A stretch of DNA of 54,176 nt, taken from positions 1-54,176 of the IMG/VR virus record IMGVR_UViG_2563366830_000017; one strand, written 5' to 3'. Source of the stretch: a virus. Taxonomy: Duplodnaviria > Heunggongvirae > Uroviricota > Caudoviricetes. The notes beneath the pieces are model-generated. The model was given only the letters and a program-made list of their open reading frames with translations, ran no database searches and was not told where the DNA came from. The translations under genes were made by a program, and so were the position numbers. Shown here in pieces: positions 12,099 to 39,113 of this stretch. The stretch's first letter is position 1. The number at the start of each line of letters is the position of its first letter.

Positions 12099-12796
12099 AA
12101 AACATCGCCGCACAGATGGTTAACTTTGACCGTGAGCAGATGCGCCGGATCGCCAACAACATGCCGGAACAGTACGACGAAAAGCCGCAGGTACAGCAGG
12201 TAGCGCGGATCATCAACGGTGTGTTCAGCCAGTTACTGGCAACTTTCCCGGCGAGCCTGGCTAACCGGGACCAGAACGAACTGAACGAAATCCGCCGCCA
12301 GTGGGTTCTGGCTTTCCGGGAAAACGGGATCACCACAATGGAACAGGTTAACGCAGGAATGCGCGTAGCCCGTCGGCAGAATCGACCATTCCTGCCATCA
12401 CCCGGGCAGTTTGTCGCCTGGTGCCGGGAAGAAGCATCCGTTACCGCCGGACTGCCAAACGCCAGCGAGCTGGTTGATATGGTTTACGAGTATTGCCGGA
12501 AGCGTGGCCTGTATCCGGACGCAGAGTCTTATCCATGGAAATCAAACGCGCACTACTGGTTGGTTACCAACCTGTACCAGAACATGCGGGCCAATGCGCT
12601 GACTGACGCGGAATTACGGCGTAAAGCTGCCGATGAGCTGACCTGTATGACCGCGCGAATTAACCGTGGTGAGGCGATACCTGAACCAGTAAAACAACTT
12701 CCTGTCATGGGCGGTAGGCCTCTAAATCGTGCACAGGCTCTGGCGAAGATCGCAGAAATCAAAGCGAAGTTCGGACTGAAAGGAGCAACTGTATGA
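12095..12796 (+). CDS. P: Replication protein P (DnaB helicase loader)
   Basis: 233-aa ORF MKNIAAQMVNFDREQMRRIANNMPEQYDEKPQVQQVA... matches lambda P. Confidence 0.97.
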   Translation: MKNIAAQMVNFDREQMRRIANNMPEQYDEKPQVQQVARIINGVFSQLLATFPASLANRDQNELNEIRRQWVLAFRENGITTMEQVNAGMRVARRQNRPFLPSPGQFVAWCREEASVTAGLPNASELVDMVYEYCRKRGLYPDAESYPWKSNAHYWLVTNLYQNMRANALTDAELRRKAADELTCMTARINRGEAIPEPVKQLPVMGGRPLNRAQALAKIAEIKAKFGLKGATV

Positions 12797-20421: not shown

Positions 20422-20590
20422 GAGGTTGCCCCGTATTCAGTGTCGCTGATTTGTATTGTCTGAAGTTGTTTTTACGTTAAGTTGATGCAGATCAATTAAT
20501 ACGATACCTGCGTCATAATTGATTATTTGACGTGGTTTGATGGCGTAGATGCACGTTGTGACATGTAGATGATAATTATTATCATTTTGC

Positions 20591-20800
20591 GGGTCCTTTC
20601 CGGCGATCCGACAGGTTACGGGGCGGCGACCTCGCGGGTTTTCGCTATTTATGAAAATTTTCCGGCTTAAGGCGTTTCCGTTCTTCTTCGCCGTAACTTC
20701 ATGTTTTTATTTAAAACACCCCCTAAAAAGAAAGGAAACGACAGGTGCTGAAAACGGGCTTTTTGGCCTCTGTCGTTTCCTTTCTCTGTTTTTGGCCGTG
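20591..20800 (+). other. cos: Prophage cos site (cosQ-cosN-cosB); cohesive-end sequence GGGCGGCGACCT at 20621..20632
   Basis: Sequence matches lambda cos as recalled; immediately upstream of Nu1. Confidence 0.9.
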
Positions 20801-26753: not shown

Positions 26754-27029
26754 ATGTCGATGTACACAACCGCCCAGCTGCTGGCGGCAAATGAGCAGAA
26801 ATTTAAGTTTGATCCGCTGTTTCTGCGTCTCTTTTTCCGTGAGAGCTATCCCTTCACTACGGAGAAAGTCTATCTCTCACAAATTCCTGGACTGGTAAAC
26901 ATGGCGCTGTACGTTTCGCCGATTGTTTCCGGTGAGGTTATCCGTTCCCGTGGCGGCTCCACCTCTGAATTTACGCCGGGATATGTCAAACCCAAGCACT
27001 TAGCATGGCTTTCTGAGGCTTTCGTGTAG
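26754..27029 (+). pseudogene. E: Major capsid protein E, 5-prime fragment (82 lambda-like codons then 10 foreign codons and stop) created by insertion
   Basis: MSMYTTAQLLAANEQKFKFDPLFLRLFFRESYPFTT...GYVKPKH matches lambda E; then LAWLSEAFV-stop. Confidence 0.9.
26989..26998. repeat. Left copy of 10-bp direct repeat AACCCAAGCA at island junction
   Basis: Identical 10-mer at 38323..38332; lambda-like E sequence ends here. Confidence 0.75.
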
Positions 27030-27110
27030 TTGCTGGTTTTTACACTTAATCTTTTGATAATAAAGAATAAGTTTATCTGGCGCTTTCACTGAATTTTCCT
27101 CGTTATCTGT

Positions 27111-27146
27111 GTGTTGCAATCATCTCTGTATTGCAGCTTGTATTGC
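27111..27146 (+). repeat. Candidate integrase arm-type sites: three copies of TGT(A/G)TTGC(A) near left end
   Basis: GTGTTGCA, TGTATTGCA, TGTATTGC read in sequence; two more TGTATTGCA copies at 38227..38247. Confidence 0.45.
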
Positions 27147-27161
27147 TTTTTGGGGCTAAAA

Positions 27162-28397
27162 ATGGCTGGCGAGAACAAACTGAGCGACAAAGCGCTTAAA
27201 GGATATCTGGGGAAACCCAGAGAAAAGCAGATCACCATTGCTGATGGAAAGGGGCTTTCTATTCGTGTGAGTACTAAAGGGGCTGTGAGCTTTGTTTTCT
27301 TCTACAGGTTAGCAGGTGGCCGGGCTGCTCCGGTCTGGCTAACGTTGGGTAAATATCCTGATATGTCACTCAAACAGGCAAGGGAAAAGCGCGACGAGTG
27401 CCGTGGTTGGTTGGCTGACAAACGTGATCCGCGTATCCAGATTAAGATTCAGGCTGAAGAACGCTTAAAGCCGGTCACAGTGGAGGATGCACTAAATTAC
27501 TGGTATGAAAACTACTGTAAGGTGCGTCGTAAAACTCATGCTGTAACGCTTGGCAGATTTCGAAAGCATATCTTTCCCTATATCGGTCATTTGCCCGTAA
27601 ATGACACTCACCTATATGAATGGCTGGACTGTTTTGACCGAATTAAACGTAATGCACCAGTTATGGCGGCGTATGTTTTTTCTGACACTAAATTAGCTCT
27701 TCGTTTTTGTCGGGTACGCCAGTACGCGACGTGTGATGCTTTAAAGGATTTGCGCATGAGTGATGTGGGGCAGATTGCAGGTAAGCGGGATCGGGTTCTG
27801 GATGAAGCCGAACTCGGCCAGCTCTGGAAGGCAATTTTTGTCGAGCCTGATTTAAAACTAATGTCTGAATACACGCGAAAAATGTTTGTGCTTTGTACAG
27901 TATTTGGATGTCGAATGAGTGAAGCCCGATTATCAGAATGGAGCGAATGGGATCTCGAAAGTTGGGTTTGGACTGTGCCAAAAGATCACTCAAAAACTGG
28001 TGTTGAAATCGTCAGACCAGTACCTGAAATTCTACGACAGTGGGTAACGGATGTTCACGAAGAGACAAAACATACTGGTTATGTGCTGGGAAGTCTGCGA
28101 ATTAGAGAAAGCGTAAGCAAGATTGGGGGGAAAATCGGTAAACGTTTGGGCCATGAAAAACAATGGTCACTACACGACCTTAGAAGAACGCTATCTACTC
28201 ATCTAAGTGATCTCGGTGTTGAATTTTATGTAGTAGAACAACTGTTAGGCCATGCGCTACCTGGCGTGGCAGGTGTTTACAACCGGAGTAAGTTTATGGC
28301 TAAAAAACTGGATGCTCTGGAACTCTGGACTACATATCTCAATAGCATCGCAGCTGCTGATTCAAAAGTGACAATCCTCAAACAAAAGGCTGGTTAG
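27162..28397 (+). CDS. Tyrosine integrase, P4-type (island-encoded)
   Basis: 411 aa from ATG; C-terminal HxLRxT...HxxxxxxxxY-like catalytic region (HELR...HDLRRT...LGHA...VY); adjacent to left junction. Confidence 0.85.
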   Translation: MAGENKLSDKALKGYLGKPREKQITIADGKGLSIRVSTKGAVSFVFFYRLAGGRAAPVWLTLGKYPDMSLKQAREKRDECRGWLADKRDPRIQIKIQAEERLKPVTVEDALNYWYENYCKVRRKTHAVTLGRFRKHIFPYIGHLPVNDTHLYEWLDCFDRIKRNAPVMAAYVFSDTKLALRFCRVRQYATCDALKDLRMSDVGQIAGKRDRVLDEAELGQLWKAIFVEPDLKLMSEYTRKMFVLCTVFGCRMSEARLSEWSEWDLESWVWTVPKDHSKTGVEIVRPVPEILRQWVTDVHEETKHTGYVLGSLRIRESVSKIGGKIGKRLGHEKQWSLHDLRRTLSTHLSDLGVEFYVVEQLLGHALPGVAGVYNRSKFMAKKLDALELWTTYLNSIAAADSKVTILKQKAG

Positions 28398-28398
28398 C

Positions 28399-28629
28399 AT
28401 GAAAAAAATGGCAATTGTTGATAAAAAGGGTCTGGAGTACATTCCTAACATTGACCGAATGATCCGTGAGAAAGAATGTCGGGAGCTAACTACTCTTGCG
28501 AACAGCACACGCTGGAAGCTGGAGAAGGAAGGAAAATTTCCTAAGCGGATCAAGATTGGTTCCACTGCTGTTGCATATCGTCTTTCAGAAGTGCAGGCAT
28601 GGATTCGAGGTGAGTGGGAAACAACTTAA
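28399..28629 (+). CDS. AlpA-family HTH regulator/excisionase-like protein
   Basis: 76 aa; placed immediately after integrase as in P4-like and PICI elements. Confidence 0.7.
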   Translation: MKKMAIVDKKGLEYIPNIDRMIREKECRELTTLANSTRWKLEKEGKFPKRIKIGSTAVAYRLSEVQAWIRGEWETT

Positions 28630-28636
28630 CTATTAG

Positions 28637-29467
28637 GTGGGCATTGTGGCTATATTTCATTATACAGATCTTTTTGGTTTGAAAGGTATATTAGACTCTA
28701 ATTCTTTATGGGCTACAAACATATATTTCTTAAATGATAAAGAGGAGTCTAACCATGGATGTGAATGCTTTCGAAATACAATTAAAATAGTTGATGACAA
28801 TATCATTCCAAAAGATAAGAAAACTATTTTGCTCAAGTCTCTTGACATGTATGAGAAAGGGAGGTTACAAAAAGAAAAAGGGATTGATAAACATGTTTAT
28901 AGCATCTCTTTTTGTAAGGAAAACGATAAGTTAAGTCAGTGGAGAGGTTACGGAAATAAACAGGGTGTTTGCATTGAGTTTGATGCGGATGAACTTGTGA
29001 GCTTTTCTCAAAATATTTATTTAAATTGTGTTGCACATGATGTTATATATTCAAATAATAACGATATTACTAAGATGAGTAAGGAGTTGGGAGAGTTTTT
29101 TTCTTGTAATGGTATTAACATTAAAGAAATGAATGATCATTTTGTAACAATGGTCTCTACGTATCAATTTATATCTAAATACATCCCATTTTTTAAACAT
29201 CCTAGTTTTATCGAAGAGAATGAATTTAGATTGGTATTTACTCCGTGGATGCAAATGCCAGATGTGCACTTCAGAATAAATAATAATGGAATCATCCCTT
29301 ATATCATCATTGATAATAAAGATAATAGAAAGTTACCAATTAAAAGCATTACAATTGGCCCGACAAACGATTATGATTTCATTGAGGCTGGTATAAAAAT
29401 GTTCTTGGATTCAAGAGGATTTAGTTCTGTGGAAATTAAATCCTCATCAATTCCATTCAGGGGGTAA
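28637..29467 (+). CDS. DUF2971-like protein (AT-rich cargo gene)
   Basis: N-terminal FHYTDLFGLKGILDSNSLWATNIYFLNDKEE resembles the DUF2971 signature as I recall it; GTG start; low GC. Confidence 0.55.
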   Translation: MGIVAIFHYTDLFGLKGILDSNSLWATNIYFLNDKEESNHGCECFRNTIKIVDDNIIPKDKKTILLKSLDMYEKGRLQKEKGIDKHVYSISFCKENDKLSQWRGYGNKQGVCIEFDADELVSFSQNIYLNCVAHDVIYSNNNDITKMSKELGEFFSCNGINIKEMNDHFVTMVSTYQFISKYIPFFKHPSFIEENEFRLVFTPWMQMPDVHFRINNNGIIPYIIIDNKDNRKLPIKSITIGPTNDYDFIEAGIKMFLDSRGFSSVEIKSSSIPFRG

Positions 29468-29598
29468 GGATTAACACTTTTAATCTGTGATATTATAAAA
29501 ATGGTGGATAAAGGCGACCAGAATTGGTCGCCAATGTGAGTATATAGTTAGCCTTAATCAGAATACGAGGTTATCGCCTGATAGGCAATGTGAACAGT

Positions 29599-29955
29599 TC
29601 AATATTTAGGTGGTTCAACAAGAGCGTTTATCATTGCTCTCAAATTATCGCGAACACTTATCCAAGTCTGTTCTGCTCGTTCTAACTCATCAGTGTACAA
29701 CTTTAATGTTTTATCTATGCCATATGTGGCTATTAAATTTATAGCTTCTTGTAATTTTTCAGGATTATTCCTTCTTGGGGGAGTGAATATACCACGGATT
29801 TTTCCGGTAATTAAAGCTTTACGGTGTCTACATAGAATACCTTTACTTCCTGCTGGACAATTACAAGTCATGATTAGCGAGCCAGAATCGTTTGATACAG
29901 TGACTATGTATACATCCAAACTACTGCTACTTGTTGCGAAGAATTCGTATTTCAT
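29599..29955 (-). CDS. SWIM-type zinc-finger protein (CxCx8CxH), AT-rich cargo gene
   Basis: Motif CNCPAGSKGILCRH seen in translation; convergent with DUF2971-like gene. Confidence 0.5.
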   Translation of the reverse strand: MKYEFFATSSSSLDVYIVTVSNDSGSLIMTCNCPAGSKGILCRHRKALITGKIRGIFTPPRRNNPEKLQEAINLIATYGIDKTLKLYTDELERAEQTWISVRDNLRAMINALVEPPKY

Positions 29956-29982
29956 GTGTTAGCTCCTTGACTTCAATTATTC

Positions 29983-30114
29983 TTATCCTTTTGGTTCAAT
30001 ACCGCGCCGTAGCAGCTCTTTGCGCCCTAATTCTTTAAGCCAGTTGGCTAGGCTTATGCCGTCGCTCTGCGCTTCTTTGTCGAATTGCTCTTTTAGCTCT
30101 GGAGAAATTCGCAT
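29983..30114 (-). CDS. Small basic protein, possible ribbon-helix-helix repressor (43 aa from ATG)
   Basis: MRISPELKEQFDKEAQSDGISLANWLKELGRKELLRRGIEPKG; divergent from downstream plus-strand operon. Confidence 0.4.
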   Translation of the reverse strand: MRISPELKEQFDKEAQSDGISLANWLKELGRKELLRRGIEPKG

Positions 30115-30313
30115 TCTGAATTGTGGAGATTGCCCATCACCCTTAGGACTTTTATCGCGTTTGATCGTTGACAAGTGACCACCTATTGAATTAGCCTTTT
30201 CATTGTTAGGTGGCCACCTTAACACGGGGGCACTTAAAAAAGCAAAGCCCGAAGGTGCTGGGAACACCAACGGGCTTCTAACCACCAACGATAGCAACAG
30301 TATCGAGGTAGCT

Positions 30314-30517
30314 ATGAGAAATCATACCACACACCCGCAAGGGCGGGACCCGCACAACCTGAATAAATACATCTGGCGTTTTATCGCCTTGAGTACGGCA
30401 CAACCGCGCATGATTACCATCGAGGCCATCAGCGAACAGGAAGCCCGCCAGCAATCCCCAACTGGCTGCGTGATGGTATTCGCCGCCCGTATTCGTCAGG
30501 AGGTGTGCCGTGCTTAA
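30314..30517 (+). CDS. Hypothetical small protein, first gene of island early operon
   Basis: ORF track 30203..30517; ATG at 30314 chosen. Confidence 0.4.
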   Translation: MRNHTTHPQGRDPHNLNKYIWRFIALSTAQPRMITIEAISEQEARQQSPTGCVMVFAARIRQEVCRA

Positions 30518-30695
30518 AACCTTCCGTGTATTTGCCCGAGCTGTTAACCCACTGGGCCACACAATTGGTATCACTCAGAACGTGAAGGCTGTTAATGTTC
30601 AGACGGCTATTGCTGCGGTGAGAAGCGAATCATCAGAATATGGCTTATCACAAGTCATTATTTCAGCAGTGTATGAATTAAAAGAGGTGCATTAA
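30510..30695 (+). CDS. Hypothetical small protein
   Basis: 61-aa ORF, overlapping starts/stops in operon. Confidence 0.45.
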   Translation: MLKTFRVFARAVNPLGHTIGITQNVKAVNVQTAIAAVRSESSEYGLSQVIISAVYELKEVH

Positions 30696-30886
30696 TGCAG
30701 GAAATCACATTACACGAAGCCGCTGAACGTGCGCACCAGACAGAAATTATTTGCCGCCTTCTTGAGGTATACCCGAACAAAATTACAGATGCTGATATAT
30801 CCGCGCTGGCGAGCCTACTGGCGCGCCTTTCGGGAAGTGTCGCTAGTTTCCTGATTGAGGAAGAAAGTAAGCTGGTGGGGGATTAA
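30695..30886 (+). CDS. Hypothetical small protein
   Basis: 63-aa ORF, translationally coupled in operon. Confidence 0.45.
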   Translation: MQEITLHEAAERAHQTEIICRLLEVYPNKITDADISALASLLARLSGSVASFLIEEESKLVGD

Positions 30887-31108
30887 ATGAATACAGAACG
30901 GGAAGTCTTTTTTAAATTGTTAGCATGTGCAGAAAGTCCATTAACTTTAAATAATTCAGCAAAAGCAATATTAAATATGTGGCTTGATTGCATAAATGAC
31001 AATGAAGATGCAAATATTGCTTATGGCCTGTTGTCACTTATTGATGAATCAGCAGAAAAACTCAATGACGCAATAAATAGTGCCCTGCTATCAAATAAGT
31101 CGAGTTAA
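30887..31108 (+). CDS. Hypothetical small protein
   Basis: 73-aa ORF in operon. Confidence 0.45.
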   Translation: MNTEREVFFKLLACAESPLTLNNSAKAILNMWLDCINDNEDANIAYGLLSLIDESAEKLNDAINSALLSNKSS

Positions 31109-31125
31109 GTCGAGGAATAAATAAT

Positions 31126-31425
31126 ATGGAAATGAAAAATTCTGGCTTTATTGCCAGCGGCCCCGCTCGGCCTGAATTTATGAACGGCGATATTTACCGC
31201 GATAAATACGGCGGCACGGTAACGATTAAAGGCGTGGCAGAACGGCGCATCACTTACCGCCGTGAGGGGTATAGCTATGACTGCGTGATGCCTGTTTATC
31301 AGTTCCGGCGTGATTTTTCCCTGGTATATGCCGCACCCCGCAGTAAGCCCATCAGCAGGGAAAAAGCGCGGGGAAACATCCAGAAAATGAAAAGCATGAT
31401 TAACGCATTCAGGGGCAAAAAATGA
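31126..31425 (+). CDS. Hypothetical protein (99 aa)
   Basis: ORF immediately upstream of and overlapping primase start. Confidence 0.5.
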   Translation: MEMKNSGFIASGPARPEFMNGDIYRDKYGGTVTIKGVAERRITYRREGYSYDCVMPVYQFRRDFSLVYAAPRSKPISREKARGNIQKMKSMINAFRGKK

Positions 31426-33173
31426 AACTGGCACCGAACTTAAAAAAACAGCCACGCGACAGACTGACAGAGGTAATCATCTTTGCAGGTAGTGATGCGT
31501 GGAGCCATGCGAAAGAGTGGCGGGAATGGGCGGGTAAACATATTGCCGCCGACGATGTGCCGCCTGTCGTGCTGGCTGATGAGCAACTGAAAAATATCAC
31601 CGATTACCGGATCATTGATGAAGATCGTCAGTGTGTGCGTGTTTACCGCGCAGGACATATCACAGAGCACAGCATGACGCAGATTGTTACGTTACTGGCT
31701 GTGGCTGGAGTGAAGACCGTACACGAATACGCGGGGATTACTGACACCAGCCCAGTGGATTTATCCGAGCAGTTGCCGCGACTCAAAGAGGAATGCGAGC
31801 GTGGGGAAAGTCTGGTGCTTAATCTTCCGACGAAGCAAAAGGCGCAACTTTCACAGATGGCAGACAGTGAACGTGCACAACTACTTGCCGATCGCTTTGA
31901 TGGTGTGTGTGTTCATGCAGAAAGTGAAATCGTCCACGTATGGCGCGGCGGGGTATGGTGTCCGGTCAGCACAATGGAGCTGAGCCGCGAAATGGTGGCG
32001 ATCTATTCAGAGCACAGGGCCACGTTCAGCAAACGTGTAATCAATAACGCCGTGGAAGCGTTAAAAGTTATTGCCGACCCCATGGGGGAGCCGTCCGGTG
32101 ATTTGCTACCGTTCACTAATGGTGTGCTTAACCTGAAAACGGGGGAATTTTCTCCGCACTCGCCGGAGCACTGGAGCACCACGCACAATGGCATTGAGTA
32201 CACGCCACCAGTAGCAGGGGAAAACATCCGCGATAATGCGCCAAATTTCCATAAATGGCTTGAACATGCCGCAAGAAAAGACCCGCGCAAGATGATGCGT
32301 ATATGTGCCGCGTTATACATGATTATGGCGAACCGCTACGACTGGCAGATGTTCATTGAGGCCACCGGAGACGGGGGAAGCGGTAAGAGTACATTTACCC
32401 ATATTGCCACCCTGCTTGCTGGCAAACAGAACACCGTAAGCGCGGAGATGACATCACTCGATGATGCAGGAGGGCGCGCGCAGGTTGTCGGGAGTCGTCT
32501 TATCGTCCTTGCCGATCAGCCGAAATATACGGGGGAAGGCACGGGCATCAAGAAAATCACGGGAGGCGATCCCGTTGAAATTAACCCGAAATATGAGAAG
32601 CGATTCACGACGATAATAAGGGCGGTGGTACTGGCAACCAATAACGACCCGATGATCTTTACCGAACGGGCCGGAGGTGTGTCACGCCGTCGGGTGATTT
32701 TCCGGTTCGACAACATTGTAAGGGAGGACGAAAAAGACAAGGAATTACCGGAAAAGATAGCGGCAGAAATCCCCGTAATTATCCGCCGCTTGCTGGCTAA
32801 TTTTGCTGACCCTGAAAAGGCACGGGCTTTATTACTGGAACAGCGTGACGGTGATGAAGCTCTGGCAATAAAGCAGCAAACGGATCCGGTTGTTGAGCTT
32901 TGCGCGGCGCTGGAGTTTCTGGAGGAAGCTCGTGGGCTAATGATGGGCGGTGGTGGTGACACCGTGAAGTACACGACCAGAAACAGCCTTTACCGTGTCT
33001 ATATGGCCTTCATGGCATACACAGGAAAGGGGAAATGTTTGAGCGTGAATGAGTTCGGAAAGGCTATGAGGTCAGCGGCGAAAGTTTACGGATATGAATA
33101 TATTACGCGAAAAGTTAAGGGAGTCACGCAGACCAACGCAACGACTACTGATGATTGCGATGCGTTTTTATAA
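31422..33173 (+). CDS. Primase/replication protein (P4-alpha C-terminal-like, with Walker A GDGGSGKST)
   Basis: 583 aa; P-loop GDGGSGKS seen; followed by iteron array. Confidence 0.8.
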   Translation: MKLAPNLKKQPRDRLTEVIIFAGSDAWSHAKEWREWAGKHIAADDVPPVVLADEQLKNITDYRIIDEDRQCVRVYRAGHITEHSMTQIVTLLAVAGVKTVHEYAGITDTSPVDLSEQLPRLKEECERGESLVLNLPTKQKAQLSQMADSERAQLLADRFDGVCVHAESEIVHVWRGGVWCPVSTMELSREMVAIYSEHRATFSKRVINNAVEALKVIADPMGEPSGDLLPFTNGVLNLKTGEFSPHSPEHWSTTHNGIEYTPPVAGENIRDNAPNFHKWLEHAARKDPRKMMRICAALYMIMANRYDWQMFIEATGDGGSGKSTFTHIATLLAGKQNTVSAEMTSLDDAGGRAQVVGSRLIVLADQPKYTGEGTGIKKITGGDPVEINPKYEKRFTTIIRAVVLATNNDPMIFTERAGGVSRRRVIFRFDNIVREDEKDKELPEKIAAEIPVIIRRLLANFADPEKARALLLEQRDGDEALAIKQQTDPVVELCAALEFLEEARGLMMGGGGDTVKYTTRNSLYRVYMAFMAYTGKGKCLSVNEFGKAMRSAAKVYGYEYITRKVKGVTQTNATTTDDCDAFL

Positions 33174-33179
33174 AAAATG

Positions 33180-33430
33180 GCAATGGTTATCTACCTTGTC
33201 TACCTGACTGAAAGAAAATACTTTTATTTCAATGTATTAATGCAGGTAGATAACTATTTTTCACTGTCTACCTGTTATCTACCTTATCTACCCATTTTTG
33301 TAGACAGGTAAGGAGACGGGTAGAGATGAGGTAGACAGCTATTTGGGGCTGTCTACCTCCCTGAAACCCGCGCCATTACTGGCCTGATAACTAATCAGGT
33401 AGACAAGGTAGACAAGGTGGTGGTGCACAA
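33180..33430. repeat. ori: Island replication-origin iterons (GGTAGACA / TGTCTACC family, both orientations)
   Basis: At least 10 copies of (A)GGTAGAC(A) or its complement within 250 bp directly after primase gene. Confidence 0.75.
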
Positions 33431-33462
33431 AAAACTTTTTAAACGAGGGGGTAAAAATAAAA

Positions 33463-33720
33463 ATGCACACATCAGGAAAACTGAACAAACATATAAAGCC
33501 ACATTACCGCGCCCTTGATATGGCTGAACACTGGCTAAGGGTGGCGATTAAGGCAATAGACCGCAACGCCGGGGAAGGATACGCGAAAGCACATCCCGAA
33601 CTGATAAGCGCATTCATGACAACGGCGGCTGCAAACTTTGCCACGCTGACCGAACGGGAGATTGCTGAAGCGGAGGAAGTGACAACAATCAATATTAAGT
33701 CCGGAGAGCAGGCAGCATGA
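33463..33720 (+). CDS. Hypothetical protein (85 aa)
   Basis: ORF overlapping ssb start. Confidence 0.45.
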   Translation: MHTSGKLNKHIKPHYRALDMAEHWLRVAIKAIDRNAGEGYAKAHPELISAFMTTAAANFATLTEREIAEAEEVTTINIKSGEQAA

Positions 33721-34166
33721 CGGCGCAAATATCAGTTTACGGGCGGTTGGTGGACGACCCGCAGACAAAACAGACCAGCAAGGGCACCCCCATGACGCTG
33801 GCGCGTATGGCGGTATCACTGCCCTGCAGTCAGTCGGATGACGGTCTGGCGACGTTGTGGTTATCTGTCCTGGCGTTTGGCAGACAAGCCGACGCGCTGG
33901 CAAAGCATCACAAAGGCGAACTCCTGAGCGTGGCGGGTAACATGCAGATGAGCCAGTGGACTGGACAGAACGGCGAAACGCGGCAGGGCTGGCAGGTTAT
34001 CGCAGACAGCGTAATCAGTGCGCGATCGGTGCGACCGGGCGGCAAAAAAGGCCAACAGGGGCAGGCTACTGACGCACTGAACAGAGCAAAACAACAGGCA
34101 GATCAGCAAGGAAGCCAGCCACCAGAGGGAGATAATGAGCAATGGGGAGATGATATCCCGTTTTAA
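33717..34166 (+). CDS. ssb: Single-stranded DNA-binding protein
   Basis: OB-fold-like N-region, Gln/Gly-rich linker and acidic C-terminal tail ending DDIPF. Confidence 0.85.
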   Translation: MTAQISVYGRLVDDPQTKQTSKGTPMTLARMAVSLPCSQSDDGLATLWLSVLAFGRQADALAKHHKGELLSVAGNMQMSQWTGQNGETRQGWQVIADSVISARSVRPGGKKGQQGQATDALNRAKQQADQQGSQPPEGDNEQWGDDIPF

Positions 34167-34382
34167 ATATTGCCAATAAAAAAAGCCGGAAAAAATAAAT
34201 TTTCCGGCATGCTACATAAATCCCGACCAAAGGGAGTGAAGATATTAACACTAATTGTCCGCACTGAAGTTGTCACCCCAAAACTTTATACAACATTGCA
34301 CTCGGTTGCATGTGTTCGCATGACAAATATCGGTGATAGCATATATCCACAATTATTTTTAATGAATGCAAAGAGGATGCGT

Positions 34383-35423
34383 ATGGTTGATTTATATTCG
34401 CCTACTCAGCTTGTACAGGTAGTTAATGCTGTAGATGTACAAAAACAACTAAATGCGTTATTTACCAGTTTGTTTTTTACTCGCTCGGTAATGTTTGAAT
34501 CGCGCGATATTATTCTTGATACAATCGACGATCCAAATATCCCAATTGCAGCGTTTTGTTCTCCTATGGTGGGTAGTAAAGTTTCACGTGACGAAGGGTA
34601 CGAATCAAAAACAATTCGTCCAGGCTATATGAAGCCGAAAAGCAGCATTGATCCAAATAAGTTAGCTGTGCGCCCTGCTGGTGTGTCACCTGAGCAATAC
34701 AATGCTTTTGGGGCGCGTAATATTAAAGTTAAACAGGCGATTGTAAATCAGGCTAAAGCTATTCGTGCACGTATTGAATGGCTTGCTGTTCAGGCAATCA
34801 CAACGGGGAAAAATATCATTGAGGGCGATGGTATTGAACGTTATGAGCTGGACTGGAATATAAAACCACAAAATATCATCACTCAGTCTGGCGGTACTGA
34901 GTGGTCAGGTAAGGATAAAGAAACTTTTGATCCAAATGATGATATTGAGAGCTACGCAGAATTTAGTGAGGGCGTCACTAATATCATCATTATGGGTGGT
35001 AATGTATGGAAGAAATACCGTTCATTCAGAGCGATAAAAGAGGCTTTGGATACCCGTCGTGGTTCTAATTCCGAACTGGAAACGGCCCTTAAAGACCTTG
35101 GTGATTCGGTGAGTTTTAAAGGGTATATGGGCGATGTTGCGATTGTTGTTTACAGCGGGCGTTATACCGACGAGGACGGAACAGAAAAACATTTCCTTGA
35201 TCCTGATTTGATGGTGCTTGGCAATACGGCTCTTCAGGGGATTGTCGCCTATGGCGGTATTCAGGATCCGGAGCTAATCCGAATGGGGCTGACTAAAGCC
35301 GAACTTGCACCGAAAAACTATATTGTGCCTGGTGATCCGGCTATTGAATATGTGCAGACACATTCAGCACCACAGCCAATACCGGCCCGCATCAATCGTT
35401 TTGTTACCGTTCGCATTGGCTAA
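34383..35423 (+). CDS. Island-encoded major capsid protein, diverged homolog of lambda E
   Basis: Blocks shared with prophage E: NIITQSGGTEWSGKDKETFDPNDDIESYA, LDTRRGSNSELETALKDLG, YMGDVAIVVYSGRY, MVLGNT; ORF track 34170 start is upstream. Confidence 0.85.
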   Translation: MVDLYSPTQLVQVVNAVDVQKQLNALFTSLFFTRSVMFESRDIILDTIDDPNIPIAAFCSPMVGSKVSRDEGYESKTIRPGYMKPKSSIDPNKLAVRPAGVSPEQYNAFGARNIKVKQAIVNQAKAIRARIEWLAVQAITTGKNIIEGDGIERYELDWNIKPQNIITQSGGTEWSGKDKETFDPNDDIESYAEFSEGVTNIIIMGGNVWKKYRSFRAIKEALDTRRGSNSELETALKDLGDSVSFKGYMGDVAIVVYSGRYTDEDGTEKHFLDPDLMVLGNTALQGIVAYGGIQDPELIRMGLTKAELAPKNYIVPGDPAIEYVQTHSAPQPIPARINRFVTVRIG

Positions 35424-35432
35424 GGGGGAGCA

Positions 35433-35774
35433 ATGGCTACTCATTACACTGAACTCATGGCTGGCACTGAAGCACTGGTGACTACGCTGGGGATATTTTC
35501 AGCTAATAAAGGGGTAATTCCTGCATTTACGCCACTGATGCAGGAAGATGCAACAGGTGCACTGGTGGTATGGGATGGTTCGAGCGTAGGTAAAGCGGTT
35601 TATGTTTCCGCTGTACAAATCGACACCGCGAAAAAAACACAGGCTCAGGTCTATAAGACAGGTGTCTTAAATGTTGATGCTCTGAACTGGCCTGAGTCTG
35701 TTAAAGAACTGTCAGTAAAGATTGCAGCGTTTGTTGGCTCAGGTATTTCTGTTCAGCCGCTGGCTCGTGTGTAA
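35433..35774 (+). CDS. Island-encoded decoration protein, diverged homolog of lambda D
   Basis: THYTEL, FTPLMQEDATGALVVWDGSSVGKAV, YKTGVLNVDALNWPE, AAFVGSGISV align with prophage D motifs. Confidence 0.8.
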   Translation: MATHYTELMAGTEALVTTLGIFSANKGVIPAFTPLMQEDATGALVVWDGSSVGKAVYVSAVQIDTAKKTQAQVYKTGVLNVDALNWPESVKELSVKIAAFVGSGISVQPLARV

Positions 35775-35785
35775 AGGGGGATACA

Positions 35786-36169
35786 ATGCAGAATGATTAC
35801 AATGACCTTAAGCCAATTGCCGAAATGATGTACCCGAATCCAGCTGTAGAGGAATTAAAAGCTATCGCTGACAAAATGTGTTTAAGCGAGCGCCTTGTTG
35901 ATATGAATCAGGTGATGGAAATTACAACCCTGAGTCGTCGTACACTGCTAAACCTTGAGGCTAGTGGAGAGTTCCCGGAGCGTGTGCAGGTTACGGAAGG
36001 GCGTAAGGCCTGGTATTTAAGTGAAGTGATCGACTGGATAAATAATATTCCTCGCGCTTCTGAATATTGCCGCGTACCTGTCCCAAAAAAGCCAGATGCG
36101 GCGCTATGCCTCAAGATTGAGCGTGTACGCCGCAATGCACGGGATGGTCGCTATAAGCTGATTGGTTGA
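35786..36169 (+). CDS. HTH protein (AlpA/MerR-like C-terminal half) immediately upstream of island cos
   Basis: 127 aa; segment MNQVMEITTLSRRTLLNLEASGEFPERVQVTEGRKAWYLSEVIDWI looks like AlpA-type HTH. Confidence 0.55.
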   Translation: MQNDYNDLKPIAEMMYPNPAVEELKAIADKMCLSERLVDMNQVMEITTLSRRTLLNLEASGEFPERVQVTEGRKAWYLSEVIDWINNIPRASEYCRVPVPKKPDAALCLKIERVRRNARDGRYKLIG

Positions 36170-36194
36170 TGAAATTAGGGCCCGCTCTGGCTGG

Positions 36195-36400
36195 CGGGTC
36201 CTTTCCGGTGATCCAGAACGTTACGGGGCGTCAGGCGCGCAGATTCTTGCTATTTATGACAATTTTCTGCGATTTGCCGTTTCCGTTCTTCTTCCTTGTA
36301 ACTTATTGTTTTTACTAGAAATACCCTCTAAAAAGAAAGGAAATGACAGGTGCTGAAAACAGGCTTTTGGGTCTCCGTCATTTCCTTTCTCATTTTTATC
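36195..36400 (+). other. cos: Island cos-like site, same orientation as prophage cos
   Basis: GGGTCCTTTCCGGTGATCC...ACGTTACGGGGCG...CGCG...GCTATTTATGA...AAAAAGAAAGGAAATGACAGGTGCTGAAAAC aligns block-by-block with 20591..20800. Confidence 0.8.
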
Positions 36401-36652
36401 TAAAAGTAAGCATCGAGGCCACCCCAAATGCTTATAGAGGTTATTGTGTCACTATGCGTACTGTTCAGGATTTAAAGTAGCAAGACATCTAGTTGCTTGC
36501 AGTTTTGGCGAATGATGTGAGGTTCTCTATAACAGATAATGTAACAAGTTACTGATATATTCTGTTATGGTTGACTTTAAATTTTGTTGCTCCTTCAATG
36601 AATTATTGAGGGGTAAAAATTAGGCGTGATAAGAATCGATCACGCCTATTGT

Positions 36653-37969
36653 TTATCTTGAAGAAATTTTAGGCAGGCTTTTTAAAAATAAATCTTTATT
36701 TCTACTTGCATCAGTTAAAAGTGTTAGGAATATTTTATCTGTAGGAGTGCATGTGCTCTTGTTTAACAGTAATTCACCAAGTTTCTGTAATCGAGAGAAT
36801 TGCCCATCCTCTTGGATTCTGTGACGAAGTGTACTATCATTTTTAATAACATCAACAAATGCAGAAACCATATTAATATCAAAGTGTTCAAACATTTCCA
36901 ATATTAAAGGTGCAGCCCCATTTGAATAAAAATTCTTCCTTCCATACTGATAGCTGAAACCACGATGGCCAACATAAGTTTTTGTAATGGCTGAAACAAA
37001 TTCAACAATATTATCTTCAGGGACGAAACTCGAGAATGGTAATAATTGGGTTACGATTTTTTCCTCTTCTGACCAATTATCTAAAGACTCGGTGAGTTTA
37101 TTAATGAGAGGCTCAATAATAACTTTTCGGGATGCAGGGCTAATATACATCAGTCCATCTACCAATAGTATGAATTGTTGTGCCTTCTCTATCTTATTGT
37201 TGTTTCCTGAAACTAAATACTTGTCAAATTGTTGGCCGACTTTACGTCGGTCGTCTTTTGAAAGTAATGTCCATAAAATAGGTGCGCAAAATTCAATGTT
37301 GTTTCTGAGTTCACTTGATATATTGGATGAGCAGTATGTGCCAAAAAAACGAGAGGATAATTCACTGATATAAATTGCAGGTAGATCTGAAAAGGCTTGC
37401 TTAACTGCCAGACTATTTTTATTAAATGTTGCCGAATCCATTTCTGAAAGATATGTAGTTATATCTATGATGGCTGGTGGAAACTCTTTAGAAAGAACGT
37501 ATTTATTACAATCATTAATCAGGTTCACTACTTTGATTAAATCAGGGTCGCTACTTTGTGGATGTCCACCAAATAGATTCCTGGTTTCTCTAGCTTGTTG
37601 TAATAGTTTCTGACCTTCTCGATCGATAACTCCTATTTTAAATGCTCCATCTATTAAATCAAAGTCGCTCACATAATCCTGAAAATCTTCATACGTTTTA
37701 ATTTCTTTTTTTTGTTTACACTCTTTGTTGAATAGATCTAGGCTACGATGAATTATCTTTTGACGTAAATCATCAACTACAGCATTCCAGTAAGCAGTGA
37801 TGGCACTTCTATAACCTTTTACAGGAAGAACTCTTATTGCTTCTGAAATATATGGGCAGTCAACTACATCATGCCTCACAGTTGAGAGCGCAGTTTGTAA
37901 CAATGTAACTTCTGTAGAGTCTAGTGGAGTTGGCTGCACTAAATGAGAACTTATCTCTGTACCCTTCAT
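36653..37969 (-). CDS. Hypothetical 438-aa protein, AT-rich cargo gene between island cos and right junction
   Basis: Low GC; contains R-x5-H motif (RNLFGGH); no family confidently assigned. Confidence 0.6.
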   Translation of the reverse strand: MKGTEISSHLVQPTPLDSTEVTLLQTALSTVRHDVVDCPYISEAIRVLPVKGYRSAITAYWNAVVDDLRQKIIHRSLDLFNKECKQKKEIKTYEDFQDYVSDFDLIDGAFKIGVIDREGQKLLQQARETRNLFGGHPQSSDPDLIKVVNLINDCNKYVLSKEFPPAIIDITTYLSEMDSATFNKNSLAVKQAFSDLPAIYISELSSRFFGTYCSSNISSELRNNIEFCAPILWTLLSKDDRRKVGQQFDKYLVSGNNNKIEKAQQFILLVDGLMYISPASRKVIIEPLINKLTESLDNWSEEEKIVTQLLPFSSFVPEDNIVEFVSAITKTYVGHRGFSYQYGRKNFYSNGAAPLILEMFEHFDINMVSAFVDVIKNDSTLRHRIQEDGQFSRLQKLGELLLNKSTCTPTDKIFLTLLTDASRNKDLFLKSLPKISSR

Positions 37970-38322
37970 TTCAGGATTTTCCTATTCTTTTCCATTTTTC
38001 TACTCTATTGAATTTGAAAAAGATATCAAGTTCGTTCTTGCCAGTTTTAAGTGGAAAATTTGATGTTACCTTATTGAGATAAGGCAGTTCTCTATAACCT
38101 ATTGTTATTAATTATTTTTATTTTTTTCCAATTCAGATGTTTAGGGCTAAGAAGTTAAGTGAGAGTTCACAGCAAAACTGCTTCTAGTTCCTCACCGAGG
38201 AGCAAAAGGTTAAGACAGCGTACTTTGTATTGCACAATGTATTGCAGAACCTTCTTTCGAAAGCTACAACAATCAATTTTATATTGAAAATTCAATCATA
38301 TCCTTTCGATATTGACTCATAT

Positions 38323-38332
38323 AACCCAAGCA
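38323..38332. repeat. Right copy of 10-bp direct repeat AACCCAAGCA at island junction
   Basis: Identical to 26989..26998; lambda-like E sequence resumes here. Confidence 0.75.
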
Positions 38333-39113
38333 TGAAGTGAATCCGCAGATGACCCTGCGTCGCCTGCCGGATGAAGATCCGCAGAATCTGGCGGACCCGG
38401 CTTACCGTCGCCGTCGCATCATCATGCAGAACATGCGTGACGAAGAGCTGGCCATTGCCCAGGTGGAAGAGATGCAGGCAGTTTCTGCCGTGCTTAAGGG
38501 CAAATACACCATGACCGGTGAAGCCTTCGATCCGGTTGAGGTGGATATGGGCCGCAGTGCGGCCAACAACATCACGCAGTCCGGCGGCACGGTGTGGAGC
38601 AAGCGTGACAAGTCCACGTATGACCCGACCGACGATATCGAAGTCTACGCGCTGAACGCCAGCGGCGTGGTGAATATCATCGTGTTTGATCCGAAAGGCT
38701 GGGCGCTGTTCCGTTCCTTCAAGGCCGTCAGGGAGAAGCTGGATACCCGTCGCGGCTCTCATTCCGAGCTGGAGACAGCGGTAAAAGACCTGGGCAAAGC
38801 GGTGTCTTATAAGGGAATGTATGGCGATGTGGCCATCGTCGTGTATTCCGGACAGTACGTGGAAAACGGCGTCAAAAAGAACTTCCTGCCGGACAACACG
38901 ATGGTGCTGGGTAACACTCATGCACGCGGTCTGCGCACCTATGGCTGCATTCAGGATGCGGATGCATTGAGTGAGGGTATTAATGCGTCTCCCCGTTATC
39001 CGAAAAACTGGAAGACATCCGGCGATCCGGCGCGTGAGTTCACCATGATTCAGTCAGCACCGCTGATGCTGCTGGCTGACCCTGATGAGTTCGTTTCCGT
39101 ACAACTGGCGTAA
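38323..39113 (+). pseudogene. E: Major capsid protein E, 3-prime fragment (codons ~80-341)
   Basis: PKHEVNPQMTLRRLPDEDPQNLADPAYRRRRIIMQNM...EFVSVQLA matches lambda E C-terminal 260 aa. Confidence 0.9.

Follow-up and report, generated by a model that had tools for sequence, protein, structure and literature searches.

A probable initiator-helicase and iteron origin in the replication zone of a helper-embedded phage satellite

The Gram-negative phage-inducible chromosomal island (PICI) EcCICFT073 has been shown to be excised, to replicate, and to be packaged and transferred at high frequency upon induction by its helper, and the origin of replication (ori) was placed immediately 3′ of the rep gene; a rep-ori segment on a thermosensitive plasmid gave colonies at 44°C, a rep mutant gave none, and deletion of the ori gave significantly fewer (Fillol-Salom et al., 2018, ISME J, PMC6092414). 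A second relative, Eco567.11capE (hereafter 11capE) of Escherichia coli NRG857c, is the founding helper-embedded PICI (Tommasini, Mageeney & Williams, 2023, PMC10111431). Here we describe a segment (positions 31,126 to 33,430) of the IMG/VR virus record IMGVR_UViG_2563366830_000017, the whole 54,176-nucleotide (nt) length of which was analysed and is called the window below. The segment contains a rep gene followed by a dense array of short repeats, and it is very probably the replication zone of a Gram-negative PICI that lies embedded in the major capsid gene of its helper, a lambdoid prophage. The direct basis for this reading is homology to the EcCICFT073 module, selective conservation of the repeats, and co-inheritance of repeat class with the C-terminus of Rep.

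The EcCICFT073 module and the island described here share the order DUF4222 gene, rep, iteron region of ∼288 bp, 85-amino-acid (aa) open reading frame (ORF), and ssb. The EcCICFT073 Rep consists of 584 aa against 583 aa here, and the two proteins are 80% identical overall. The EcCICFT073 ori aligns with 75% identity over 98% of the length of the repeat region, with 10 of the 12 octamer positions in register and the spacers diverged, and it contains, as here, a GGTAGA core, an AT-rich stretch after the first iteron pair, a CCGCGCCATTACTG block, and a downstream leader. The two elements differ in their location, EcCICFT073 being situated between roxA and phoQ in the chromosome and the present island inside a prophage capsid gene. 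An earlier note on this DNA, made from the sequence alone, had proposed a satellite rep-ori module at this position, and the direct homology to an experimentally tested module supports that proposal.

The 289-bp intergenic region that follows rep contains six exact copies of GGTAGACA and ten of the degenerate octamer GGTAGAYA, all within 33188–33414, where they make up a single cluster; neither form occurs elsewhere in the window. Across the full 54 kb, 0.73 and 1.78 copies, respectively, would be expected, and the observed counts were reached in none of 100 shuffles. Allowing one mismatch adds TGTAGACA at 33299 and GGTAGAGA at 33319, to give 12 copies where ∼0.01 is expected in 289 bp. These are divided equally between the strands, with minus-strand iterons at 33188, 33197, 33265, 33276, 33285, and 33350, and plus-strand iterons at 33245, 33299, 33319, 33330, 33398, and 33407. 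The invariant core is the hexamer GGTAGA (11 copies). Each end of the array is a tandem pair with 9-bp spacing, the two pairs together forming a 21-nt inverted repeat that is 95% complementary, and the array also holds two 30-nt units, each with a pair of inverted copies. At least ten octamers in both orientations had been noted earlier over ∼250 bp, beginning within 10 bp of the gene. The two orientations stand, but the span is 227 bp, a count of ten or more holds only for the degenerate octamer (six copies being exact), and the first repeat begins 15 bp after the stop codon.

An AT-rich stretch (33206–33243) separates the first iteron pair from the remainder of the array and is presumed to be the DNA-unwinding element; positions 33212–33241 are 87% AT, compared with 61% for the entire intergenic region. 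The place and AT-richness of this stretch are kept in all E. coli variants while its sequence drifts. A second feature is a non-iteron block (CTGAAAsCCGCGCCATTACTGGC; 33360–33383) that is preceded by the last minus-strand iteron, is followed by the terminal tandem pair, and is nearly invariant across eight E. coli ori variants of the GGTAGA type. Its exact 14-mer CCGCGCCATTACTG recurs 3′ of a P4-alpha-like gene in Aeromonas tecta (locus L013, 4104–4117), where the local array consists of TTACTGGCACTG-like repeats. A conserved hairpin at 33360–33383, as a possible single-strand initiation signal, was considered and dropped, as the palindromes fall in differing registers and show no consistent compensation. 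The intergenic region closes with an A-tract/T-tract, AAAAAACTTTTT, and then the ribosome-binding site of the next ORF (33421–33462, + strand), which are invariant in the E. coli variants. A scan of the ori region for promoters and terminators returned no sigma-70-like promoter and no terminator-like site, and scans of seven ori variants for DnaA boxes, IHF sites, and GATC found nothing conserved. The region thus has the traits of an iteron-type origin, namely many short repeats, an AT-rich stretch, and conservation of the repeats above that of the spacers.

The last of these traits was quantified using the eight E. coli variants, for which mean pairwise identity is 0.89–0.99 at the 66 iteron-core columns, against 0.60–0.70 at the remaining 181. 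When an equal number of hexamers was placed at random, this difference was never matched (permutation p = 2 × 10−4). Conservation extends beyond E. coli: a Rep of E. ruysiae is only 44% identical, yet 11 GGTAGA hexamers (mostly GGTAGAC) follow directly after its stop codon, although arranged differently. A set of 61 distinct pairs of Rep C-terminus and ori, drawn from IMG/VR and E. coli genomes, shows that N-terminal types of Rep combine variously with C-terminal types and that iteron class tracks the last ∼45 residues. Rep proteins with the C-terminal motifs ...YITRKVKGVTQTN and ...YLTRGFKGRTQTN are followed by GGTAGA iterons, those with ...YMKRKTKHGLRSN by TGTTCACC, those with ...YRKERRARGMVTN by GGTATACA, and those with ...YRKERKTRGVVTN by ATGAACAC. 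The repeats are therefore kept in the related elements examined, a point on which the earlier note had made its proposal depend. Co-inheritance of this kind is consistent with recognition of the iterons by the Rep C-terminus, without amounting to proof. Within the GGTAGA class, VNxFG is accompanied by A at iteron position 8 in all 30 pairs that have it, and VAxFS by G in 26 of 27 pairs; because rep adjoins the ori, so that linkage is inseparable from recognition, we keep this association as a possible lead only.

Further variation was observed among the IMG/VR loci. Loci L116–L125 fall into two sets of Rep that differ at a few residues of the C-terminal wing, with the wing sequences RKARGMVTN and RKTRGVVTN followed by different iterons (GGTATACA and ATGAACAC, respectively), and the origin of L116 contains both kinds, making it a possible intermediate in a switch of specificity. 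In the GGTAGA-type loci L107–L110 the halves of the array are in reverse order relative to the window, and a perfect 13-bp palindrome (GCTGAATCCCTTG CGCCA CAAGGGATTCAGC) is found where the conserved block would stand.

We located 11capE in the NRG857c chromosome and compared it directly with the island. The two share the same insertion point and attachment (att) core, AACCCAAGCA, and are nearly identical at both ends, with 99.3% nt identity over int-AlpA and 97% from the 3′ part of the 85-aa ORF through ssb, capsid, gpD, and AlpA2 to cos. They differ in the variable zone and cargo (HEPN and DUF262 genes there, a 438-aa ORF here) and in the surrounding prophage, which lies at icd in NRG857c and has Qin-type genes instead in the window. 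The replication module differs as well: the 11capE Rep has 606 aa, and its ori consists of 8–9 CTGTTCAC(C) iterons, the same octamer as the P4 type-1 repeat, with no GGTAGA. Consistent with these differences, blastn matches the island to 11capE at both ends and to EcCICFT073 (84% nt identity) from ∼31810 to 34045. The junction is also evident in Rep itself. Relative to the EcCICFT073 protein, identity is 43% for residues 1–135, 93% for residues 136–300, 95% for residues 301–480, and 83% for residues 481–583, whereas the corresponding values for the NRG857c protein are 64%, 35%, 57%, and 35%. The low identity of the first 135 residues to EcCICFT073 is explained by the island having an N-terminal domain of the 11capE type.

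From these mosaic identities, we conclude that the part of Rep beyond approximately residue 130 behaves as an exchangeable cassette together with the ori and the initial codons of the 85-aa ORF. Such an exchange fits a cognate initiator–origin pair, and a modest but testable proposal is that the Rep core and ori may move between PICI lineages as a unit. Since 11capE has a like integrase, AlpA, and Rep N-terminal domain but other iterons, none of these is the iteron binder. The natural domain swaps instead appear to map iteron specificity to the last ∼45–100 residues of Rep, which is likewise a modest proposal open to test.

The Rep ORF (31422–33173, + strand) encodes 583 aa and coincides with the RefSeq call on an E. 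coli chromosome that is identical across the stretch; its ATG overlaps the stop codon of the upstream DUF4222 gene (ATGA). The protein is annotated as a ‘DNA primase family protein’, and Pfam, NCBIfam, and Protein Data Bank (PDB) matches, identity to P4 alpha, and motifs identify it as a replication initiator with a superfamily 3 (SF3) helicase. Pfam detects D5_N, DUF5906, and Pox_D5 only, with the D5_N domain (residues 152–281) and the DUF5906 P-loop helicase core (residues 315–416) matched at 1.3 × 10−15 and 6.2 × 10−10. The NCBIfam model TIGR01613 (‘primase_Cterm’) scores 103.5 bits, slightly under its cut-off of 108.7 bits. The P-loop reported in the earlier note, GDGGSGKS(T), is present at residues 316–324 and is the Walker A motif of the helicase; it is accompanied by the usual SF3 signatures, a Walker-B-like LIVLAD at residue 360, VLATNN at 403, and RRR at 422. 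Residues 487–578 match PDB 1KA8 (E = 2 × 10−7; deposited as ‘putative P4-specific DNA primase’), which we take to be the origin-binding winged-helix domain of P4 alpha, and this part of Rep is predicted to have the same function. Residues 137–578 align with residues 321–762 of P4 alpha at 41% identity (443 aa). As judged from these matches, Rep is an SF3 helicase of the P4-alpha/D5 lineage that is probably origin-binding and self-loading.

The resemblance to P4 extends to the organization of the locus, as P4 alpha also contains D5_N, an SF3 helicase, and a C-terminal winged helix and is directly followed by octamer iterons in both orientations. The annotated P4 genome places crr directly 3′ of alpha, and the ‘ori type 1 repeats’ of crr (GGTGAACA/TGTTCACC) point both ways. 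The right half of the island ori resembles a crr unit, with a minus-strand iteron and CTGAAA, then a spacer and a tandem pair of plus-strand iterons (9–10 bp spacing), and finally an A/T tract. The sequence of the P4 type-1 repeat comes from the annotated genome; a literature search for TGTTCACC gave only matches to unrelated primers. Several features distinguish the two systems. The N-terminus of P4 alpha is a Zn-ribbon and Toprim primase of ∼320 aa, whereas that of the island Rep is an unrelated 135-aa domain; the iterons of P4 fall into two separated regions (ori and crr), those of the island into one cluster; and the iterons are TGTTCACC in P4 but GGTAGAYA in the island. A further relative is the self-loading PriRep helicase of the Staphylococcus aureus pathogenicity islands (SaPIs; PDB 7OLA and 7OM0). 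Its SF3 core is homologous to that of Rep (E = 5 × 10−15 for 7OLA), but the match is confined to the core, with no similarity in the origin-binding domain or iterons, and SaPIs belong to another bacterial lineage and have another transcriptional layout. The 7OLA chain comprises 797 aa, of which ∼430 residues precede the aligned helicase core and presumably include a primase domain. Rep–ori pairs of SaPIs are cognate and vary between islands.

The island occupies 26989–38332 (11,344 bp, 43% GC, + strand). The 10-bp att core AACCCAAGCA is present as a direct repeat at 26989–26998 and 38323–38332, inside a lambda-E-like major capsid gene of the lambdoid prophage that is thereby split into two parts (26754–26999 and 38325–39113). 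The split gene has terminase, portal, protease, and gpD genes as neighbours at one end and FI and tail genes at the opposite end. When the capsid halves are joined at the att core, they give ...GYVKPKHEVNPQ..., the continuous frame expected of an intact capsid gene, and excision at AACCCAAGCA would therefore restore the capsid gene of the helper. An island placed in this way has the configuration described for helper-embedded PICIs (Tommasini et al., 2023), and the integrase falls with the cap_E subclade of the late-gene-targeting clade by the 99.3% nt identity of att-int-AlpA to 11capE, a statement of identity and not of phylogeny. The host prophage has the Qin-type genes rem, ydfU, cspB, essD, rrrQ, and nohA. 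Among 5,426 complete E. coli genomes, 174 have the segment comprising the capsid junction and integrase. The chromosome of strain EC4 (NZ_CP060974) is 100% identical to the window over 31000–34300 and 99.8% identical over the att-int segment (26940–28400).

Within the island, a tyrosine integrase with an arm-binding domain (int; 27162–28397, + strand) is followed by AlpA (28399–28629, + strand; Pfam Phage_AlpA, E = 3 × 10−15) and by a variable zone composed of DUF2971, SWIM, and Icd-like genes and small ORFs; a pseudogene is located at 29984–30250. TGTATTGCA is repeated directly just within each end of the island (27110–27147 and 38226–38246), three times near attL (once exactly and twice with one mismatch) and twice, exactly, near attR. 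The window has no exact copy besides these three, and the repeats are probably arm-type binding sites of the integrase. Downstream of the replication zone are the satellite's own complete capsid gene (34383–35423, + strand), a gpD-like decoration gene (35433–35774, + strand), and a second, longer AlpA-like gene (127 aa; 35786–36169; E = 8 × 10−9) just before a cos-like site (36194–36397). This site is 80% identical to the cos region of the prophage (20589–20792), but at the 12-nt cosN position it reads GGGCGTCAGGCG, which differs at five positions from the exact lambda cosN of the prophage, GGGCGGCGACCT (20621–20632); EcCICFT073 has exact copies of cosN (at 12557 and 13296 of locus L002). A 438-aa cargo ORF (36653–37969, − strand) is situated in a low-GC stretch (35–39%) and matches only phrog_27609, of unknown function; Pfam, NCBIfam, and PADLOC gave no match. 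Its position, in which NRG857c 11capE has HEPN and DUF262 genes, suggests a slot for defence-type genes. All of int, alpA, rep, ssb, capsid, and gpD are on the + strand, with two cargo ORFs alone on the − strand.

These features are those by which Gram-negative PICIs are recognized (Fillol-Salom et al., 2018): the island is within the range of 10–20 kb and has int and att sites, alpA beside int, and rep followed by an ori with iterons on either side of an AT-rich region. The only late genes annotated in it encode capsid and decoration proteins, there being no tail, lysis, or terminase genes, and its cos-like region resembles that of the helper.

The immediate neighbours of rep and ori are similarly arranged in related elements. 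The DUF4222 gene (31126–31425, + strand) is translationally coupled to rep and directly precedes it in 11 of 11 related annotated loci. The SSB gene predicted earlier after the repeats is present (33717–34166, + strand; 149 aa; Pfam SSB, 2 × 10−15; TIGR00621), and the single-stranded DNA-binding protein (SSB) it encodes has the acidic tip GDDIPF. It does not follow the repeats directly, however, as the 85-aa ORF (33463–33720, + strand; phrog_1231) intervenes and overlaps its start. A short ORF occupies this place in nine of the 11 loci, the exceptions being L003, with neither a short ORF nor an SSB gene annotated, and L004, with a second short ORF before ssb. The stretch from rep to ssb (31000–34300) is matched at 95% identity or more by 138 complete E. 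coli genomes, at least 80% of it is present in 189 of the 5,426, and identical copies exist in IMG/VR contigs; a search of a phage collection with the replication module gave no match.

Given the annotation of Rep, we focused on whether it is likely to prime. The earlier note had also called the protein primase-like, a description that is not sustained: Pfam and NCBIfam detect no primase domain in it, and the P-loop belongs to the helicase. The PHROG families named ‘DNA primase’ align with Rep only from approximately residue 136, via the C-terminal halves of longer proteins, and ‘primase’ is an annotation label inherited from P4 alpha. Most relatives of Rep in genome contigs are P4-alpha-like proteins of 770–800 aa and not PICI Reps. 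P4 alpha and these relatives from other genera have Zn_Ribbon_Prim and Toprim_3 ahead of the common part; PICI Reps have neither. The N-terminal domain of Rep (residues 1–135; 31422–31826, + strand) is family-specific, variable, and exchanged independently of the remainder of the protein. Its family is a narrow one, comprising 87 clusters out of 1.8 billion representatives, in which the domain is nearly always N-terminal, and hhalign comparison of this family with the N-terminal (primase) regions of P4-alpha-type proteins revealed no relationship and no remnant. After strand 1 the family has an invariant FAGSDAW, the Ala of which would stand at the position of the catalytic Glu of Toprim, and the DxD that would be expected after strand 3 is missing. 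The Zn-ribbon and Toprim of P4 alpha have thus been replaced in Rep by a domain that may be Toprim-like yet lacks the acidic residues of the catalytic site. That the protein is nonetheless a true primase-helicase as annotated, with these 135 residues forming a minimal, active Toprim-type primase, appears unlikely to us; primase activity of Rep is unsupported and, from its domain content, rather unlikely. Priming by host DnaG, perhaps with help from the GDDIPF-tipped SSB of the satellite, would be the simplest alternative.

A model for replication of the satellite can be drawn from these observations. The C-terminal winged helix of Rep would recognize the GGTAGAYA iterons directly 3′ of its own gene, and Rep bound on either side of the 38-bp AT-rich stretch would assemble and open it, permitting a hexameric helicase to be loaded there. 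The satellite SSB would cover the single strands, and its GDDIPF tip could recruit replisome proteins of the host. Priming would most likely be carried out by host DnaG or the helper, and not by Rep, and the products would be packaged via the cos-like site at 36194–36397. We infer the activity of this particular copy, binding by the winged helix, melting of the AT-rich stretch, and the source of the primer.

Several observations weigh against the assignment of the segment as an active PICI replication zone or against parts of it. An AlphaFold 2 (AF2) prediction for full-length Rep, made with a shallow alignment of 15 sequences, places the helicase and winged-helix parts below a pLDDT of 50 and is usable for residues 1–127 only. 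Because the model is poor and the alignment shallow, the assignment of these domains comes from sequence matches only; a search for homologous proteins gave only relatives at least 80% identical and did not deepen the alignment. Foldseek comparison of residues 1–127 of the model with the PDB returned meaningless matches, and prediction of the N-terminal domain on its own (pLDDT 40) gave no usable model. The co-inheritance of iteron class and Rep C-terminus could in part reflect linkage, as rep adjoins ori, and the lack of primase activity would follow from missing domains and residues. Induction of a capE-embedded PICI has been studied only once, for 11capE with its other Rep/ori type, and the ratio of excised attP to attB was ∼1 in two of three repeats and 1.6–1.9 in the third, indicating autonomous replication that is weak at best (Tommasini et al., 2023). 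Excision of 11capE was demonstrated, whereas its replication was equivocal and the experiments yielded no particles; moreover, the composite of helper and satellite was replicated before the satellite was excised, and the authors remark that the satellite is copied passively when the helper drives replication (Tommasini et al., 2023). An embedded satellite might accordingly be copied only passively with its helper, its rep-ori being intact but unused and the module dispensable or decaying, a scenario compatible with the passive transfer noted by those authors and with the presence of at least one pseudogene in the island (29984–30250). We regard it as quite improbable here, since rep is full length with all helicase motifs, the iterons are far better conserved than the spacers, and the rep-to-ssb stretch persists at 95% identity or more in 138 E. 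coli genomes and in identical IMG/VR copies. The third 11capE repeat (attP:attB of 1.6–1.9) and the functional EcCICFT073 homologue also argue against it (Tommasini et al., 2023; Fillol-Salom et al., 2018).

Two further explanations assign the island or the repeats differently. The island could be a P4-like satellite with a strict alpha-crr module, consisting of a primase-helicase, a cis-required region, and a second, distant ori. The identity to P4 alpha (41%), the C-terminal match to 1KA8, the position of the repeats directly 3′ of the gene, as for crr, and the crr-like terminal tandem iterons and A/T tract are all in keeping with this idea. We nonetheless give it very little credence: the Zn-ribbon and Toprim are absent, with no remnant by hhalign, there is no second GGTAGAYA cluster in the window, and Pfam, NCBIfam, or PHROGs scans found no Psu, Sid, Delta, or Epsilon among the island ORFs examined. 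An Rfam scan of the island (E ≤ 0.1) gave no matches, and therefore no P4-type immunity RNA (C4/isrK) was detected. The host element is lambdoid and not P2-like, and int, the late zone, and the att site are 97–99% identical to those of a published PICI. The repeats might alternatively be operator sites at which AlpA or another helix-turn-helix regulator of the island controls the 85-aa ORF, ssb, and capsid genes, with no origin present. Their location between two co-oriented gene blocks, with the array ending 49 bp before the next start codon, and the two AlpA-family proteins encoded in the island would suit such a function, yet the AlpA-like genes and int are 97–99% identical to those of NRG857c 11capE, where the repeat is CTGTTCACC and has switched together with the Rep C-terminus. 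The region also contains no sigma-70-like promoter, and the homologous region of EcCICFT073 behaves as an ori (Fillol-Salom et al., 2018), leaving this explanation hardly any probability at all.

A PICI rep-ori module thus remains the preferred reading, and the module is of a known kind: the island represents a mosaic version of the published 11capE, and its module is a close homologue of the validated pri-rep/ori of EcCICFT073. As modules of this kind were described and tested in close relatives before, we count the module as ordinary. The gain for biology is accordingly small, and the main value lies in showing that a satellite replicon is recognizable from sequence alone. What interest remains concerns the doubtful identity of Rep as a primase, its independently shuffled N-terminal domain, and the residue-level leads on iteron recognition. 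Tentatively, and with less than even confidence, we suggest that the ‘Pri’ proteins of Gram-negative PICIs may not be primases but initiator-helicases derived from P4 alpha, in which a 135-aa domain, possibly a dead Toprim, shuffles as an exchangeable adaptor apart from the cassette of helicase, origin-binding domain, and ori, while the cassette from approximately Rep residue 130 through the ori fixes origin specificity. A primase label on a Rep family that lacks any detectable primase domain prompts one to ask which protein primes the replication of PICIs. If the suggestion is true, the adaptor domain could recruit host DnaG or a component of the helper replisome, or could set the specificity for helper or host.

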